From NCBI GenBank assembly GCA_947631265.1, contig CANRKQ010000001.1, positions 1 through 61,460 of the forward strand: 61,460 nucleotides of DNA. Reading direction: 5' to 3'. Of this stretch, positions 26,202-52,024 are shown piece after piece; the first letter of the stretch is position 1; each line of letters begins with the position of its first letter. The notes below the pieces were generated by a model that saw only the letters and a program-made list of their open reading frames with translations, searched no databases and was not told the origin of the DNA. Position numbers and translations under genes: made by a program. The stretch is from an uncultured Clostridia bacterium (lineage in GTDB: Bacteria > Bacillota > Clostridia > Oscillospirales > Ruminococcaceae).

Positions 26202-26369
26202 TGATAATATTATATAACATTTTTGCATAAAAATAAAGTCTTTTTGAATAAAAATATAGCTTTGGTCAAAAATATTTTTAAATAAAGGTGTGCAAATCAC
26301 AATTTTATATATTTTTCTATTAAATTCTGCATAAAGCCGTAAAATTTGCACAGGAAAGGTTTAGGACAT

Positions 26370-26666
26370 ATGAAAATAACAGACATTAAAATCAGAAAAT
26401 TGTTGGACTCAGGTAAGCTGAGAGGAGTTGTAAGCATTACTCTTGACGACGTGTTCGCTGTGCATGACATTAAGGTCATACAAGGAGAAAACAGACTTTT
26501 TGTAGCAATGCCCAGCAGACGCGATGAAAAGGGTACGTTCAGAGATGTTGTTCACCCGATAAACAGTGAACTGAGAACAGAGTTTGAAACGCAGATACTT
26601 TCGTGTTACCAAAAGGAGCTTGAAAATCACAACGCTGAACAGGAAAAAAATAACCCAAGCATTTAG
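26370..26666 (+). CDS. spoVG: septation protein SpoVG
   Basis: MKITDIKIRKL...VSITLDDVFAVHDIKVIQGENRLFVAMPSRR...FRDVVHPI. Start set at Met9. Confidence 0.9.
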   Translation: MKITDIKIRKLLDSGKLRGVVSITLDDVFAVHDIKVIQGENRLFVAMPSRRDEKGTFRDVVHPINSELRTEFETQILSCYQKELENHNAEQEKNNPSI

Positions 26667-26681
26667 CTTGAGTTGTTTTGT

Positions 26682-27086
26682 TCAGCCTAAAAAGCTTTTA
26701 GCTTTATTAACAATTGCTTTATCATTATCATAAGAGAGTACCGAACACGCACGGTCAATTTCTATCCAACGGATATCAGCGATCTCCTCCTCCTGAGGAA
26801 TGAAGTTTGTATTTTTAGCTTTAGCAATAAAATACACCACTATTTTATGAGTATCCTTTTTTGGAGAATAAGAAACTGTTTCCCTGAACGTCGGATCGAT
26901 TATGGTATCAACGCTAGTTTCCTCAAGAATTTCACGATGTGCGGTTTCAACCTCGGTTTCGCCTGCCTCGACGTGACCCTTAGGAAAAGACCAATGACCG
27001 CTGTTGATATGTTTTATCAGCAGAATTTCGGTGTTCCCATGATATTTTCGATAAACGATTGCCCCACAGGATTTTTCATTTATCAT
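26682..27086 (-). CDS. NUDIX hydrolase (Ap4A hydrolase-like)
   Basis: Nudix box GHVEAGETEVETAHREILEETSV. Start at MINEKSCGAIVY. Confidence 0.8.
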   Translation of the reverse strand: MINEKSCGAIVYRKYHGNTEILLIKHINSGHWSFPKGHVEAGETEVETAHREILEETSVDTIIDPTFRETVSYSPKKDTHKIVVYFIAKAKNTNFIPQEEEIADIRWIEIDRACSVLSYDNDKAIVNKAKSFLG

Positions 27087-27398
27087 GAGTATTACCCTTT
27101 CTAAAACTAGTTTTAATATATTAAATATATTATAACACAAAAAGATGCTTTTGTCTTTAGTTTTTTAGATTTTTTAAAAAATAGTACAAGAAAAAATTCG
27201 CTGGAATGTAAGATTATTTACTTTTCAACTTTTTTGTAGCTAGAAGATGCTTATATGATATTCCATAAACTGTAAGCAGCAAAAATAATATCGTCTACAA
27301 TTATAGACATTAGTTGTTGTATTTTTACAAAAACTCTAAAAATTTTCGGTATAGATTGTTACTTTTTAACAAAAATAAAAATAAATTATTGTACAATC

Positions 27399-27428
27399 TT
27401 GACATAAGTGCTAATAATGTTATATAAT
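27399..27428 (+). promoter_or_regulatory. near-consensus sigma-A promoter with no downstream ORF
   Basis: TTGACA (27399-27404), spacer, then TGTTATATAAT (extended -10; TATAAT at 27423-27428). Confidence 0.5.
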
Positions 27429-27434
27429 GTATGT

Positions 27435-27872
27435 AAATTCTGGTAAAAAGTGTTGACTGTATCTAGAAAATAATTAAATCAGCCGCACTTTATGAATTTT
27501 GTTACTTCTTTGCTGAAGTGCTTTATTTGGCGGATTTAGAACTTTTTTCAATGTATTGCTCTGGCTTTGGTAATGTTATTCATTAAAGTTACCTGATCAA
27601 AAACAAGCTCTTTGATTAAAGTGAAGAACAGATGGCTATCGTGGTTTGGATTGTATAAAGATTTGATTTTTTGTTTTTGTTAAAGAGTTAAAAGTCAAAT
27701 AAATTACTTTTTAGGATAATTTGCTTTGGATATATTTAGGTTTTGAACTAAATCAAAGAGCGTTGTAAATCCGCCGAATAAACATAATTTATTTTAATTG
27801 TAAGTATATTTTAATTTTTATTTTGATTATGTGTTTAATAAAAAGCCCCGAACTTTTGTCCGGGGCTTTTTA
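27435..27872 (+). ncRNA. candidate large structured non-coding RNA (unclassified)
   Basis: ORF-free and bracketed by the promoter above and the terminator at 27841-27872. It contains nested long-range helices 27522-27538/27767-27783 (17 bp, with one U-G pair only on the plus strand) and 27607-27617/27751-27761 (11 bp). Confidence 0.35.
27841..27872. terminator. bidirectional terminator (acpP on minus strand; candidate ncRNA on plus strand)
   Basis: aaaagccccg-aacttttgtc-cggggcttttt. Confidence 0.8.
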
Positions 27873-27877
27873 TGAAA

Positions 27878-28108
27878 CTAATTATCTATTTCTTCAATAA
27901 ACTTAACAATATCGCCGACTGTTTTTACATTTTCTACTTCATCATCTGGGATTTTGATGTCAAACTCTTCTTCAAGAGACATAATTAAGTCAACAACGTC
28001 AAGAGAGTCTGCACCTAAATCTTCTGTAATAGAAGCGTCCATTGTAATTTTGTCTTCGTCAACATCAAGCTGATCAACGATAATATCCTTTACCTTATCA
28101 AATACCAT
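27878..28108 (-). CDS. acpP: acyl carrier protein
   Basis: 76 aa with the phosphopantetheine motif [11 protein letters not shown]. Confidence 0.9.
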
Positions 28109-28203
28109 AAGAAAAACAACCTCCTTTTTAAAGATATGTCTATTATTTCGGGATTTAATCTTTTATATTCAGAATTCCCGATATAACCTGAAATTTAAAA
28201 TGT

Positions 28204-29016
28204 TTATTCCTGATTTTCCTCAAACTCTCCGATTTTCCTAAACTTAGTATACCTATCATTGAGCAATTCGTCAATAGGTTTATGCAAATTTCTTTTAAAA
28301 GCGTCACGCAAATAGCTGCATATATTTTCCGCAGCAAGGTCGGGATTATTATGAGCTCCGCCTTCAGGCTCTTCGATGATATAATCGCATATATTCAAAG
28401 CAGTTAAATCCTCAGCGGTAATCTTCATAATGTCGCAAGCCTCACGCTCGCGAGATGCGTCTTTCCACAATAACGAGGCGAATCCCCGCGGTGAGATAAC
28501 AGAATACAGTGCGTTTGAAAGCATAGCCAATTCATCGCATACACCCAGAGCCAAAGCGCCTCCGCTGCCGCCCTCGCCTAAAACTATTGAAATTACAGGA
28601 GTTTTCAAGGTCATAAATTCCATAAGATTTCTGGCAATAGCCTCGCCCTGACCTCTCTCCTCCGCCTCAACTCCGCAGAATGCTCCGGGAGTGTCAATGA
28701 GACATATGAGAGGTCGGTGAAATTTCTCCGCCTGATGGGCAAGCCTTAAAGCCTTTCTGTAACCCTCAGGGTGGGGCATAGAAAAGTTTGAGGCTTTGTT
28801 TTCCTCTATATTACGTCCTTTTACCTGCGCTATAACTGTAACAGGTATCTCGTCAAAGTATGCTATTCCTCCGATTATTGCACCGTCGTCGCCGTAGTAT
28901 CTGTCGCCGTGCATTTCAAAGAAATCGTCAAATAGCATGGGAATATAATCACGCACAGTAGGGCGAAATTTATTCCGCACAATGTCAAGACGTTCGCTCG
29001 CCGGCAGGTTATTCAT
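28204..29016 (-). CDS. accA: acetyl-CoA carboxylase carboxyltransferase alpha subunit
   Basis: Motif IDTPGAFCGVEAEERGQGEAIA. Overlaps accD by 8 nt. Confidence 0.9.
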   Translation of the reverse strand: MNNLPASERLDIVRNKFRPTVRDYIPMLFDDFFEMHGDRYYGDDGAIIGGIAYFDEIPVTVIAQVKGRNIEENKASNFSMPHPEGYRKALRLAHQAEKFHRPLICLIDTPGAFCGVEAEERGQGEAIARNLMEFMTLKTPVISIVLGEGGSGGALALGVCDELAMLSNALYSVISPRGFASLLWKDASREREACDIMKITAEDLTALNICDYIIEEPEGGAHNNPDLAAENICSYLRDAFKRNLHKPIDELLNDRYTKFRKIGEFEENQE

Positions 29017-29899
29017 CAGCGCCGCCCCCTTTGCTCTGGTGAAGCTTTAATAAGTGAGAAAGTGTTCTTCTTATTTTTTTTCTGTCTACGATCATATCGA
29101 CAAAGCCTTTTTCCATAAGAAATTCTGCCGATTGGAAATCGTCAGGCAGCCTTTGCTTTATTGTTCCCTCTATTACTCTTCGTCCTGCAAACCCGATAAG
29201 AACCTTTGGCTCGGCGATGATTATATCGCCCAAAGATGCGAAAGACGCTGTTACTCCTCCGGTGGTAGGATCGGTCATAACGGTGATATACAAAAGTCCG
29301 GCTTTGTTGTGACGCGCAACAGCACCGCTTGTTTTTGCCATCTGCATGAGAGAAACTGTTCCCTCCTGCATTCTTGCTCCGCCTGATGCAGTGAATACGA
29401 TTATAGGAAGTCTGTTTTCTGTTGCAAACTCAAACGCCCGGGTAAGCTTTTCACCCACAACACTTCCCATAGACGCCATCATATACCTTGAATCCATAAC
29501 CGCTATGACAATTCTGTCTCCGCGAATGGTAGCCTCACCTGTTACTATAGCGTCTTTTAGATCTGTCTTTTCACGAATACTTTCCTGCTTTTGCTCGTAA
29601 TCCTGAAAGCCGATAGGATTTTTAGAAACCATATCCTTGTCAAATTCAACCAGGCTGTTCTTATCAATTGTGATATCCAAGCGTTCTTTTGCCGAAATTC
29701 TTGAATGATAGTTGCATTGAGGACAAACCTTTGCGTTTCCTACAAAATCGTCCATAAAAGTCACATTAGAGCACCTTGGACATTTAAAAAGCAAATCCTT
29801 TGGGATATCTGTTTTTTTTACGTCTTTTTTTGAATTTGAGGCGTTTGATTCAGTACCGTTAAATCTTGTTTTTACAACTGAAAACAAATCTTCAAGCAT
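29009..29899 (-). CDS. accD: acetyl-CoA carboxylase carboxyltransferase beta subunit
   Basis: N-terminal Zn ribbon CPRC...CPQC, then SGGARMQEG. Confidence 0.9.
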   Translation of the reverse strand: MLEDLFSVVKTRFNGTESNASNSKKDVKKTDIPKDLLFKCPRCSNVTFMDDFVGNAKVCPQCNYHSRISAKERLDITIDKNSLVEFDKDMVSKNPIGFQDYEQKQESIREKTDLKDAIVTGEATIRGDRIVIAVMDSRYMMASMGSVVGEKLTRAFEFATENRLPIIVFTASGGARMQEGTVSLMQMAKTSGAVARHNKAGLLYITVMTDPTTGGVTASFASLGDIIIAEPKVLIGFAGRRVIEGTIKQRLPDDFQSAEFLMEKGFVDMIVDRKKIRRTLSHLLKLHQSKGGGADE

Positions 29900-29959
29900 A
29901 AAAGATTTTTCCCTCCTCGGTTTATTTCAACGCATAACCAAGTTATGCAAGTCTGAAAA

Positions 29960-31309
29960 TCAATCCTTTAAAATATCAACTCTTCCTAAAAAGCCGTTAT
30001 CGTATTTTCCGTCTAAAAATTCCTTTCTGCGGATAAGTCTAAGCTGAAAGTCGATATTTGTAGATACTCCGTCAACGATAAATTCCGAAAGCGCCCACTT
30101 CATTTTTGCAATAGCACTTTCTCGGTCAGGTCCGAAACAGATCAATTTTGCTATCATAGAATCATAGTATGGCGGAATTTCATATCCCTGATAGACTGCG
30201 CTGTCAACCCTTATTCCAAGTCCACCGGGAATATGTAACGAATTGATTACTCCCGGTGAGGGACGGAAATTCTGCTCAGGATTTTCTGCATTTATTCTAC
30301 ACTCTATTGCATGGCCTGTCAAGTGTATATCCTCCTGCTTGATTTCAAGCTCTTTTCCCGAGGCGATAAGCAGCTGTTGTTTAACCAAGTCGATTCCCGT
30401 AACAGACTCGGTAATAGGATGTTCAACCTGAATACGCGTATTCATTTCCATAAAATAATAGTTTAAGTTCCTGTCAACTAAAAATTCAATCGTTCCTGCG
30501 TTTCTGTAGCCGCAGACCTTAGCCGCAGCGACAGCCGACGCCCCCATTTTTTCCCGAAGTTCTTTTGTCATTACAGGAGACGGAGTCTCCTCTAAAACCT
30601 TTTGGTTGCGTCTTTGCATAGAACAATCCCTCTCGCCGAGGTGTATCACATTTCCGTAATCATCAGCAAGAATTTGTATTTCTATATGCTTTGGATTTTC
30701 AATAAACTTTTCAATATATATATCGTCGTTACCGAAACAAGCCATTGCCTCGGTTTTTGCGGCGGTTATCTGAGCCTCAAGCTCGGATCGGTCTTTTACT
30801 ATGCGTATACCTCTTCCTCCGCCGCCGGCAGATGCCTTGACCATAACCGGATATCCTATTTCATCAGCAAGGCGCTTTGCGGATTCTATATCCTTAACAG
30901 CCCCGTCAGAGCCTGAGATCACAGGAACGCCTGCGTTTTTCATTGTTTCTTTAGCCTTAGCCTTGTCACCCAGCATTTCTATAGATTCCGGTTTCGGACC
31001 GATAAAGGTAATACCGCATTTTTCGCAAGTTCTTGCAAAATGAGCGTTTTCAGATAAAAAACCAAAGCCCGGGTGAATTGCATCAGCGCCGGTTATTTCG
31101 CAAGCGGATATTATAGAACGCATATTCAGATAGCTTTCTGCGCTTGATGCCGGACCTATACATACCGCCTCGTCGGCAATCTTTGCGTGGAGTGCGTTTG
31201 CGTCGGCTGTTGAATAGACAGCAACAGTTGCTATCCCCAACTCTCTGCAAGCACGAATTATACGAACAGCTATTTCGCCCCTGTTCGCAATAAGAACCTT
31301 TTTAATCAT
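29960..31309 (-). CDS. accC: biotin carboxylase
   Basis: KVLIANRGEIAVRIIRA, ATP-grasp fold, EMNTRIQVEH. Confidence 0.95.
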   Translation of the reverse strand: MIKKVLIANRGEIAVRIIRACRELGIATVAVYSTADANALHAKIADEAVCIGPASSAESYLNMRSIISACEITGADAIHPGFGFLSENAHFARTCEKCGITFIGPKPESIEMLGDKAKAKETMKNAGVPVISGSDGAVKDIESAKRLADEIGYPVMVKASAGGGGRGIRIVKDRSELEAQITAAKTEAMACFGNDDIYIEKFIENPKHIEIQILADDYGNVIHLGERDCSMQRRNQKVLEETPSPVMTKELREKMGASAVAAAKVCGYRNAGTIEFLVDRNLNYYFMEMNTRIQVEHPITESVTGIDLVKQQLLIASGKELEIKQEDIHLTGHAIECRINAENPEQNFRPSPGVINSLHIPGGLGIRVDSAVYQGYEIPPYYDSMIAKLICFGPDRESAIAKMKWALSEFIVDGVSTNIDFQLRLIRRKEFLDGKYDNGFLGRVDILKD

Positions 31310-51869: not shown

Positions 51870-51944
51870 TGGTGACCCGTACGGGAATTGAACCCATGAT
51901 TCCGCCGTGAAAGGGCGGCGTCTTAACCTCTTGACCAACGGGCC
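51870..51944 (-). tRNA. tRNA-Glu (anticodon UUC), CCA encoded
   Basis: Manual cloverleaf: GGCCCGT/ACGGGTC acceptor stem, anticodon loop CTTTCAC, T-arm ACGGG-TTCAATT-CCCGT, then ACCA. Confidence 0.9.
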
Positions 51945-51947
51945 GTA

Positions 51948-52024
51948 TGGTGGCTGTAACTGGATTTGAACCAGTGACACTCCGGGTATGAACCGAATGC
52001 TCTAGCCAACTGAGCTATACAGCC
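51948..52024 (-). tRNA. tRNA with CAU anticodon (elongator Met type; Ile2/lysidine not excluded), CCA encoded
   Basis: Manual cloverleaf: GGCTGTA/TACAGCC acceptor stem, anticodon loop TTCATAC, T-arm ACTGG-TTCAAAT-CCAGT. Confidence 0.8.

Follow-up and report, generated by a model that had tools for sequence, protein, structure and literature searches.

We propose that positions 27399-27871 of the window, the 61,460-nt stretch of gut Ruminococcus DNA analysed here, form a stand-alone gene whose product is a structured non-coding RNA (ncRNA) of about 440 nt made from the plus strand, with action as a decoy or sponge as the candidate mechanism; we assign to this explanation as a whole a probability of about 0.6. 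Judged from sequence comparison, it is very likely that the unit is a real ncRNA gene, and action by base pairing or as a decoy through its G-rich motif B is a tentative proposal that may well prove wrong. The initial annotation had described an orphan promoter-terminator unit and a candidate large ncRNA, and this reading is now supported by orthologues in ten lineages, an invariant promoter, compensatory base changes, a plus-strand bias of the structure and the absence of a match to any known family. The unit shows the marks of a small RNA (sRNA) gene, namely a conserved promoter of its own, an intrinsic terminator, no coding potential and a structure kept by compensatory changes (6-10 sequences). 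With no known family matched, the ncRNA looks like a new family of narrow distribution. Its gene is accessory and confined to certain lineages, which sets it apart from the housekeeping RNAs.

Ruminococci have a key part in breaking down fibre in the gut and the rumen, and to our knowledge no regulatory RNA has been characterised from them; a literature search on Ruminococcus sRNAs retrieved nothing relevant. The candidate is well delimited, its two ends being predicted and its structure supported by covariation, and is directly testable.

A conserved promoter and a shared terminator bound the unit

The near-consensus promoter that had been placed at 27399-27428 reached a score of 12/12 in a promoter pattern scan and was the top site within 26600-28300. 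In the alignments, TTGACA and TATATAATGTAT do not vary from one orthologue to another. The -35 and extended -10 boxes are unchanged in all of them, whereas identity in the flanking DNA is no more than 50-85%, and the -35, -10 and start region is invariant across lineages in which the adjoining bases vary. The promoter is the most conserved part of the unit in the alignment and looks strong, and the spacing of its boxes predicts a transcription start near A27435. The conserved block that precedes it (Table 1) may be a regulator or UP-element region. A second promoter, at a conserved TTGACA-like hexamer 75 nt upstream, was considered and rejected, because the nearest TATAAT-like -10 hexamer lies about 20 nt away, which does not make a canonical promoter.

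The NUDIX gene had also been given its own promoter at 27108-27140. A promoter-like site does lie close to this gene, the best one consisting of AAGACA, a 17-nt spacer and TATAAT with an upstream TG on the minus strand (27157-27129), but its -35 box falls just outside the range first proposed.

At the other end, the stretch of about 440 nt terminates, as had been described, at a bidirectional terminator, giving a unit of 27399-27871. The hairpin (AAAAAGCCCCG...CGGGGCTTTTT, 27840-27871) lies 6 nt past the acpP stop codon and was seen in the folds; the promoter/terminator pattern scan did not list it. Relatives that lack the RNA conserve it too, as do all the others.

The spacer between NUDIX and acpP was found to contain no open reading frame (ORF) of at least 60 codons and no short ORF preceded by a ribosome-binding site, in agreement with the initial annotation: on neither strand did an ATG ORF of at least 10 codons, or a GTG/TTG ORF of at least 20 codons, carry a Shine-Dalgarno-like sequence. 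No conserved ORF was found among the orthologues, whose indels disregard the reading frame in the alignment. These results bear on the possibility that the unit is the mRNA of a small protein or type I toxin, or the riboswitch or attenuator leader of a lost gene, which we consider highly improbable. The unit has long-range 5'-3' pairing and a bidirectional terminator, as type I toxin mRNAs typically do; short ORFs also exist, such as a 15-codon ATG ORF at 27494-27541. However, this ORF is shortened or absent in two relatives (L004 and L005), and none of the ORFs is shared by the orthologues or equipped with a ribosome-binding site. A leader, for its part, would have no gene in the same orientation downstream, as the terminator abuts the convergent acpP in every species, and no riboswitch family matched.

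Table 1 Features of the predicted RNA unit and of the DNA upstream of it, in window coordinates
Feature	Position	Strand	Description
Conserved block 5' of promoter	27297-27398	+	Aligns in all 8 species in that alignment
Imperfect palindrome	27297-27317	+	ACAATTATAGACATTAGTTGT; within the conserved upstream block
Second -35-like hexamer	27324-27329	+	TTTACA; in the upstream block, which also contains an A/T-rich tract
Sigma-70/SigA-type promoter	27399-27428	+	-35 TTGACA 27399-27404, 18-nt spacer, -10 TATAAT 27423-27428
5' leader of the RNA	27435-27517	+	Predicted hairpins 27438-27468 and 27485-27520; poorly conserved (fold, alignment)
P1 5' arm	27518-27542	+	GUG, bulged C, UUUAUUUGGCGGAUUUA, G, AAC; GGCGG core
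Left-side branch, P1 to P2	27543-27606	+	Hairpin GGTAA...TTACC at 27569-27593
P2 5' arm	27607-27617	+	GCUCUUUGAUU; pairs with 27751-27761; kept in long-class relatives
Motif A	27643-27653	+	GGUUUGGAUUG; family consensus RGUUUGG (GUUUG in L003)
Variable distal hairpin	27655-27705	+	Specific to the window species; absent from L116 and L001
Motif B region	27708-27741	+	UUUUUAGGAUAAUUUGCUUUGGAUAUAUUUAGG; G-rich, Shine-Dalgarno-like; homologous to GGGAUAAUUUGGGAAGAAUG of short-class relatives (alignments)
P2 3' arm	27751-27761	+	AAUCAAAGAGC (fold, long-class alignment)
P1 3' arm	27762-27785	+	GUU, G, UAAAUCCGCCGAAUAAA (27766-27782), CAU
3' tail	27786-27839	+	A/U-rich; not conserved (alignment); within-species indels and substitutions
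Bidirectional intrinsic terminator	27840-27871	.	Common to convergent acpP; A5, GCCCCG stem, T5

Nested helices in the folded domain

The nested long-range helices of the initial annotation were recovered in the fold as P1 and P2 (Table 1), and the domain that contains them folds more stably than shuffled sequences. In P1, the left arm TTTATTTGGCGGATTTA (27522-27538) pairs over 17 bp with a single U-G, as had been claimed, although the right partner is 27766-27782 and not 27767-27783, an error of one position. The G/G mismatch followed by AAC/GTT on the inner side was present as well, and the fold adds a further GUG/CAU extension on the outer side. P2 joins GCTCTTTGATT to AATCAAAGAGC, and the left-side branch carries its GGTAA...TTACC hairpin, both as anticipated. 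The 277-nt domain folds at -71.8 kcal/mol, compared with -51.0 +/- 4.4 kcal/mol for dinucleotide shuffles (z -4.8, 0/200) and with -47.5 kcal/mol for its own minus strand; the fold of the whole unit has a z of -6.0. The 17-mer arm occurs only twice in the 61 kb, at these two places.

Motif A, which recurs in nearly every orthologue, has a predicted unpaired probability of about 0.5, and motif B is degenerate in the version of the window. The same-species variant L122 lacks 16 nt (27661-27676) of the variable distal hairpin. Two resemblances within the RNA were set aside. A tRNA-like reading of GCGGAUUUAG was negative in ARAGORN, and its likeness to the 5' end of tRNA-Phe amounts to 10 nt that are missing in the short class of RNAs; a boxA-like GCUCUUUGAUUAA within the P2 arm is confined to the window and L116 and was treated as a coincidence.

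Distribution in relatives and selection on the structure

Within one Ruminococcus subclade, ten species-level lineages have an orthologous unit at this position. It is missing from four relatives that share the gene order, namely L008, L010, L073 and L112 (the last through the NUDIX cluster representative P0003). RNA-less relatives retain no trace of the promoter, the RNA body or the tail, that is, the whole unit is absent and not only the inverted-repeat segment, and in L124/L125 the RNA has been lost. For L113, reached through the NUDIX representative P0001, the HTH gene and 250 nt upstream of NUDIX are present and the contig stops short of the RNA position.

P1 measures 24-30 bp in all nine RNAs tabulated. 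Its GGCGG/CCGCC core is invariant in eight of them, L002 being the exception, and a pair-by-pair table revealed that its flanks differ among the nine yet remain complementary. Cognate P1 arms pair at -27.3 kcal/mol, compared with -21.0 kcal/mol for non-cognate arms, and no permutation out of 100000 was as good. The plus-strand helix is more stable than the minus-strand one in 9/9 sequences, the G-U pairs favouring the plus strand. In the alignment of the six short-class RNAs, paired cells make up 84.8%, compared with 31-48% after sliding of the partners, and 11 pairs have changes in both members, where the slid controls have 1-5. Covariation of P2 is seen in the long class, with a G-C pair replaced by A-U in L116 (ACTCTTTGAT/ATCAAAGAGT), and the inner hairpins show compensatory changes in the alignments too. 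The covariation for which the initial annotation had suggested a check is present in P1, P2 and the inner hairpins of the orthologues, in a small sample of 6-10 sequences from ten related lineages that is suggestive and below R-scape grade. As read from these alignments, P1 and P2 are shown to be maintained by selection. Same-species variants differ at 3 of 277 domain positions and at 11 of the 166 positions of leader plus tail (Fisher p 0.003), and the three domain substitutions (27551, 27578 and 27595) all fall in the left-side branch.

These data also weigh on the view that the region is an AT-rich, fast-evolving spacer with fortuitous features, or a DNA inverted repeat that affects NUDIX or acpP. 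DNA as poor in G+C as this region (25%) often contains promoter-like hexamers (13 found in the pattern scan versus 7.8 expected), the domain interior diverges fast, with 51-58% identity between the window and short-class RNAs, and some lineages (L124/L125) have lost the RNA. However, such a spacer would not be expected to hold its -35, -10 and start region invariant amid varying bases, to keep its helices by compensatory changes or to collect fewer within-species polymorphisms in the domain than in the flanks. The G-U pairs make the structure strand-specific, unlike a DNA cruciform, and the NUDIX promoter lies 240 nt away from the RNA unit and is independently conserved, also in species without the RNA. 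We therefore regard a non-functional or purely local DNA element as improbable.

Known RNA families and further copies

The initial annotation had recognised no RNase P, tmRNA, SRP or 6S signature, and the Rfam scan likewise gave no family match. With Rfam 15 at the gathering threshold, the whole window yielded only two tRNAs, both elsewhere. At E <= 10, the interval 27090-27900 gave matches on the terminator hairpin and two weak sub-threshold matches (E 8.4 and 2.9) that fall in the NUDIX promoter region, with none in the RNA body. The five orthologous loci scanned at the gathering threshold gave no match, the RNA of L007 gave nothing credible at E <= 10, and ARAGORN found no tRNA or tmRNA. 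No orthologue was found in the scanned metagenome collection, where all 21 of the 21 hits to the pattern TATAATGTAT-N(80-110)-TTTATTWRRMGGRTT (-10 box plus left arm) were attributed to chance, as they were without TTGACA, the GGCGG core and the right arm. A retron msr-msd was also considered and rejected: there is no adjacent reverse transcriptase, and acpP and NUDIX are the only neighbours, joined in some relatives by an XRE HTH gene.

Could the unit instead be MITE-like or the decayed remnant of a mobile element, its 17-bp arms being terminal inverted repeats and its promoter and terminator incidental? As in MITE or REP-like elements, a long, near-perfect inverted repeat of 17 bp encloses AT-rich intergenic DNA of about 260 bp (a 261-bp segment), the element is present or absent among species with the same gene order, and the surrounding intergenic island, an HTH gene and a second small RNA (sRNA-2), has been gained or lost piecemeal among relatives. 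However, the search for further copies of the inverted repeat that had been suggested as a check on this alternative returned a single copy in the 61 kb, and a covariance model, R1, run over 85 sources (0.93 Mb) recovered the syntenic copy only. There was no match by blastn in phage and plasmid collections, nor in viral contigs with two-arm patterns for both length classes or with the sRNA-2 patterns. Target-site duplications are lacking, the left flank being GAAGTGC and the right flank CATAATT, and RNA-less relatives are without the promoter or the RNA body, so that the difference is not an inverted-repeat-bounded excision. Moreover, the arms evolve compensatorily, their G-U pairs functioning only in plus-strand RNA, and the unit has its own promoter, its most conserved part, at a syntenic position. 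With one syntenic copy in the 61 kb and the 85 sources searched, no target-site duplication and the whole unit absent in RNA-less relatives, the mobile-element alternative did not stand, and we see hardly any likelihood in it.

A candidate decoy function

In the ncRNA gene that we propose, the invariant promoter would drive a predicted plus-strand RNA of about 440 nt, ended by the terminator that it has in common with acpP. The core is a 270-nt domain closed by P1 (24-30 bp), which in the window species is stacked on P2. The RNA may act in trans, P1 and P2 serving as a nuclease-resistant scaffold that would show G-rich, Shine-Dalgarno-like single-stranded motifs (A, RGUUUGG; B, GGGAUAAUUUGGGAAGAAUG, in the window UUAGGAUAAUUUGCUUUGGAUAU), and these motifs might bind a partner rich in C and U. 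As the most concrete candidate mechanism, the RNA would be a decoy or sponge for an anti-Shine-Dalgarno-type sRNA, comparable to the sRNA-2 that neighbours the RNA in relatives.

The spot between acpP and NUDIX in relatives also holds the XRE-type HTH gene and sRNA-2. The CU-rich seed of sRNA-2, GCUUUCUUCCUAAAUAUUCCU, is conserved and single-stranded, and it is complementary over about 18 bp to motif B in L003, L006 and L004. The pairing energies are -23.4, -24.5 and -18.7 kcal/mol, respectively, with z values of -3.8, -4.8 and -2.2 against shuffled targets, and in L004 a C-to-U change in the seed faces a G-to-A change in the target. This predicted complementarity suggests a decoy or sponge role. 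The RNA of L116 did not pair significantly with the sRNA-2 of that lineage (z +0.9). In the window species, sRNA-2 was not found at the locus or elsewhere in the 61-kb window, and the pairing of motif B with the known seeds reaches no more than -10 to -15 kcal/mol, where the shuffle background is about -13. The function cannot rest on sRNA-2 alone, because five lineages retain the RNA without an intact sRNA-2. RNAduplex predictions against the translation-start regions of 50 window genes consisted of unrealistic long-loop interactions and were discarded as uninformative.

A wider proposal, which we think unlikely, would make the acpP-NUDIX spacer a mostly-RNA regulatory island composed of an XRE-type repressor, the anti-Shine-Dalgarno sRNA-2 and a dedicated downstream sponge RNA, the last two forming a linked sRNA/anti-sRNA pair in which motif B co-evolves with the seed. 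The partners would have been lost variously, and the window species would keep the scaffold only, re-used or decaying. If the link to sRNA-2 is true, the locus would be a natural case of an sRNA gene adjoining the gene of its sponge, and a pair dismantled differently in sister species would inform the rise and decay of RNA circuits; if it is false, the RNA would be one more orphan, narrowly distributed ncRNA, worthy of an Rfam entry and unsurprising.

The motifs might also serve a protein. CsrB/RsmZ with CsrA, 6S RNA with RNA polymerase and Rli31 with SpoVG are examples of RNAs that bind or sequester proteins, and a scaffold with several short G/U-rich motif copies could titrate or assemble an RNA-binding protein in a similar way. 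Like CsrB/RsmZ and 6S RNA, the candidate would be a medium-sized, probably abundant structured RNA with repeated short motifs on a helical scaffold. UU[UA]GG occurs 3-6 times per domain, 37 times in total versus 10.9 +/- 3.1 in dinucleotide shuffles (0/1000), but this enrichment comes from nine related sequences and not from nine independent observations. The RNA exceeds the size of a typical base-pairing sRNA, has the strong-looking promoter described above, and conserves its structure more than any long single-stranded seed. In the window, spoVG lies 700 nt away (26346-26666), which may be a coincidence; SpoVG is an RNA-binding protein in Listeria (PMC4959528). However, no candidate protein was identified, and several UUUGG copies are located within helices, on the 5' strands, so the enrichment may be partly a by-product of structure. 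The idea of a CsrA sponge was rejected, because the GGA motif of such sponges is not enriched (30 observed versus 25.0 +/- 3.7 expected, the observed count being reached or exceeded in 111/1000 shuffles). The Rfam models for 6S, Csr/Rsm and other RNAs with protein partners gave no match even at E <= 10, and, unlike 6S RNA, this RNA has a patchy, accessory distribution. Overall, we consider a protein-binding role rather unlikely.

Comparison with known regulatory RNAs

SroC and 3'ETS-leuZ are sponges of bacterial sRNAs. In Bacillus subtilis, RosA is a sponge RNA for RoxS/FsrA (PMC8216469). The candidate resembles these three as a stand-alone Firmicute ncRNA with its own promoter and terminator, and in relatives it bears a G-rich target mimic for a C/U-rich seed (about 18 bp and -23 to -25 kcal/mol in L003 and L006, as predicted). 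However, it has no sequence or structural homology to them, and the window RNA is two to three times longer and built on a closing helix of 24-30 bp. Its partner sRNA, in an interaction that is predicted only, is encoded right beside it in relatives and was not found in the window.

The enterobacterial sRNA GcvB has a G/U-rich seed, and the conserved G/U-rich single-stranded motifs described here could likewise pair with C/A- or C/U-rich sequences, although GcvB belongs to an unrelated phylum, shows no homology and is smaller; we know of no Hfq context for the window RNA. As an orphan Firmicutes RNA of a few hundred nucleotides with a multi-helix, covariation-supported domain, the candidate is also comparable to raiA, ROOL, GOLLD and OLE. 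In contrast to these, it matches no model, has no phage association and is far more narrowly distributed, in one subclade of one genus, and its interior changes fast and comes in a long and a short architectural class.

A probable ncRNA unit between the NUDIX gene and acpP

The window belongs to a Ruminococcus in the R. flavefaciens group, whose nearest relatives are rabbit-gut "Lapin" MAGs and the human-gut UMGS771. The initial annotation had proposed a structured ncRNA in the gap between the NUDIX gene and acpP, and this reading is supported by orthologous units in ten lineages, by compensatory helices and by a plus-strand bias. We put at roughly 0.8 the probability, judged from sequence analysis, that 27399-27871 is a real ncRNA gene. 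Comparative analysis assigns it to a new ncRNA family of narrow distribution with a helix-closed multi-stem domain; its predicted kind, a stand-alone bacterial regulatory RNA, is itself already known.

The proposed promoter (TTGACA, 18 nt, TATAAT; 27399-27428) scored 12/12 and was the top site in the region, and the gap indeed contains no ORF of at least 60 codons. No Shine-Dalgarno-like sequence was found on either strand of the gap at ATG ORFs of at least 10 codons or GTG/TTG ORFs of at least 20. In P1, the helix closing the domain, the annotated pairing of TTTATTTGGCGGATTTA (27522-27538) with TAAATCCGCCGAATAAA holds, but the partner lies at 27766-27782, shifted left by one base from where it had been placed. 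The accompanying G/G mismatch, AAC/GTT extension and 11-bp second helix P2 (27607-27617 with 27751-27761) appear in both the minimum-free-energy and centroid folds. The bidirectional terminator was recovered at 27840-27871, at a distance of 6 nt from the acpP stop codon; its stem is preceded by A5 and followed by T5. For the 277-nt domain the predicted folding energy is -71.8 kcal/mol vs -51.0 +/- 4.4 for shuffles (z -4.8), and for its complementary strand only -47.5 kcal/mol. The P2 5' arm GCUCUUUGAUUAA (27607-27619) is similar to boxA, the antitermination motif known from rRNA operons, probably by coincidence, since the likeness is restricted to the window and L116, a related locus.

As for the surrounding genes, accC, accD, accA and acpP form a minus-strand string (27878-31309) with acpP as the final gene, apparently an unusual place for it given the order common in fab clusters. 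The spoVG and NUDIX genes are convergent, and the hairpin between them (26652-26674) was called a terminator on both strands and is probably bidirectional.

Features of the locus in the window and in related loci (L handles), with P1 inner segments and predicted pairings
Feature	Position	Strand	Details
murC		minus	first in local gene order, then spoVG
spoVG		plus	between murC and NUDIX
NUDIX	26682-27086	minus	
Gap, NUDIX to acpP			791 nt
acpP	27878-28108	minus	
accA, accD, accC		minus	after acpP
P1 inner segment, window			5' strand UUAGAAC; 3' strand GUUGUAA
P1 inner segment, L007			5' strand UUUUGGUGCUU; 3' strand AAGCAUCAAAA
P1 inner segment, L005			5' strand GAGAUACU; 3' strand AGUAUC
XRE-family HTH_3 gene	L003:5496-5861	plus	
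XRE-family HTH_3 gene	L113:251-544; L116:2845-3138; L124:707-1021		also in L006
sRNA-2	L003:5255-5465	minus	predicted transcript ~160 nt
sRNA-2 promoter			its own; TATTGACA...TTATAAT
sRNA-2 CU-rich stretch			GCUUUCUUCCUAAAUAUUCCUAUAAA; conserved, anti-Shine-Dalgarno-like
sRNA-2 hairpin			GCCCGAAAGGGC; terminator also present in unit
Locus that lost the RNA body	L124:250-706; L125:1-485		-10 box remnant GCTATATAAT and ~100 nt before acpP terminator
Predicted seed/motif B pairing, L003			-23.4 kcal/mol; z -3.8 vs shuffled targets; 18 bp, one bulge
Predicted seed/motif B pairing, L006			-24.5 kcal/mol; z -4.8 vs shuffled targets
Predicted seed/motif B pairing, L004			-18.7 kcal/mol; z -2.2 vs shuffled targets; seed C-to-U opposite target G-to-A

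Orthologous units and conserved structure

Relatives were gathered by a NUDIX-protein scan with one genome per species, which gave 80 loci. The acpP-gap-NUDIX order was kept in L001-L008, L010 and L073, the gap measuring 680-1360 nt in L001-L007 and 145-275 nt in L008, L010 and L073 (~205 nt in L112). All long gaps carry the same unit of promoter, left arm, right arm and terminator, with TTGACA and TATATAATGTAT invariant in the promoter, the left arm ~90 to 180 nt 3' of the -10 box and the right arm a further 150-240 nt on. Conservation extends to some 110 nt on the 5' side of the -35 box, a block that holds an imperfect palindrome ACAATTATAGACATTAGTTGT (27297-27317; consensus ACAATTATCGACAATAGTTGT in all orthologues), a possible operator; its TATCGACA is also like a reversed Spo0A box. 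Exact-protein look-ups supplied same-species contigs, 100% or 97% identical over the gap, a same-species variant (L122, 94.5%) lacking 16 nt of the distal hairpin, and the lineages L116 and L133/L134. The RNA is thus carried by ten species-level lineages, namely the window species, L001 to L007, L116 and L133/L134. By domain length they split into two classes, long (~260 nt: window, L116, L001, L133) and short (165-200 nt: L002-L007), and the window domain is only 51-58% identical to the short-class RNAs.

The consensus of the six short-class RNAs consists of P1 and three hairpins, H1-H3. Both sides changed at 11 of its 43 pairs, compared with 1-5 double-change pairs in controls with partners slid by 1-3 columns, and 84.8% of cells were paired vs 31-48% in those controls; on four of five measures the observed values were reached by 0 to 7 of 500 shuffles. 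P1 spans 24-30 bp in all nine RNAs tabulated rung by rung. Its GGCGG/CCGCC core is invariant except in L002 (GAAGG/CCACC), and its inner segments are wholly unlike in sequence between RNAs with complementarity kept. Cognate P1 arms had a mean fold energy of -27.3 kcal/mol vs -21.0 for non-cognate arms (0 of 100000 permutations as good). P2 is kept in the long class, with a G-C to A-U change in L116. Because P1 contains 23 G-U pairs over the nine sequences and its plus-strand hairpin is more stable than the complement in all nine, comparison identifies the selected structure as a plus-strand RNA rather than a DNA cruciform. Among same-species sequences, 3 of 277 domain positions differ, every one in the left branch (27543-27606), vs 11 events in the 166 nt of leader and tail (Fisher p 0.003).

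Alternative readings of the unit

The annotation had recognised no RNase P, tmRNA, SRP or 6S signature, in agreement with our Rfam 15 scan, which gave no match at gathering thresholds in the RNA gene or five orthologous loci; at E <= 10, matches fell on the terminator or were weak and chance-level elsewhere, with none in the RNA body. ARAGORN found nothing, and the patchy distribution likewise excludes a housekeeping RNA. Across the window as a whole, Rfam models reached their gathering threshold only at two adjacent minus-strand tRNA genes (51873-52024).

A MITE had been the alternative offered for the inverted repeat. The P1 17-mer has no further occurrence in the 61-kb window. A covariance model of the short class matched the window RNA over its full length (27514-27788, 26.6 bits, E 6e-4) and gave no further copy in the 0.93 Mb searched, which comprised the window and related loci. 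We therefore reject the MITE reading, since no dispersed copies turned up in these sequences, no target-site duplication flanks the P1 arms, and neither promoter nor RNA body left any trace in relatives that lack the element. Phage, plasmid and viral collections held no similar sequence. Small-protein, type I toxin and leader/riboswitch readings are unsupported, because the orthologues share no conserved ORF and no same-orientation gene lies 3' of the unit.

A neighbouring HTH gene and a second candidate small RNA in relatives

In L003, L006, L116, L133 and L124/L125, the interval from the RNA gene to NUDIX contains an XRE-family HTH gene (~97 aa); the called length is 97 aa in L113, L116 and the protein cluster P0123, and the L003 frame has 121 codons. 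Paralogues, 65-69% identical, occur at unrelated loci beside an HtrA-like protease gene or the cotJ operon, with neither RNA. Divergent from the HTH gene is a second candidate small unit, sRNA-2 (L003, L004, L006, L116, L124/L125, L133-L139), which sits directly upstream of the studied RNA's promoter in the same orientation and matches no Rfam family. In the window neither HTH gene nor sRNA-2 was found. L124/L125 form a natural deletion variant, keeping both and losing the body of the studied RNA. Since the three elements are present or absent by lineage, the acpP-NUDIX spacer, as far as sequence comparison indicates, behaves as a small accessory island eroded differently by lineage, and the studied RNA is its most often retained part. 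L008, lacking the RNA gene, keeps an sRNA-2-type terminator hairpin.

Possible mechanism

Two G-rich motifs are common to the family. Motif B reads GGGAUAAUUUGGGAAGAAUG in the short class and UUAGGAUAAUUUGCUUUGGAUAU in the window (within 27708-27741). In relatives having both, the CU-rich seed of sRNA-2 would pair with motif B, and the studied RNA might serve as a target mimic or sponge for sRNA-2. RosA/RoxS of B. subtilis exemplifies such a sponge (PMC8216469), and the predicted pairing in relatives is the pattern expected of one. A linked sRNA/sponge pair, if confirmed, would make the finding more interesting. However, in L116 the pairing between the RNA and that lineage's sRNA-2 was not significant, the window motif is degenerate and pairs with known sRNA-2 seeds at background level only, and the studied RNA is kept without intact sRNA-2 in five lineages. 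We therefore regard it as possible but doubtful that the RNA works through motif B, by base pairing or as a decoy. That the RNA instead acts as a protein-binding scaffold appears unlikely. Motif A is RGUUUGG family-wide (GUUUG in L003; window 27643-27649). GGA showed no enrichment over dinucleotide shuffles, and UU[UA]GG was enriched 3.4-fold over them.
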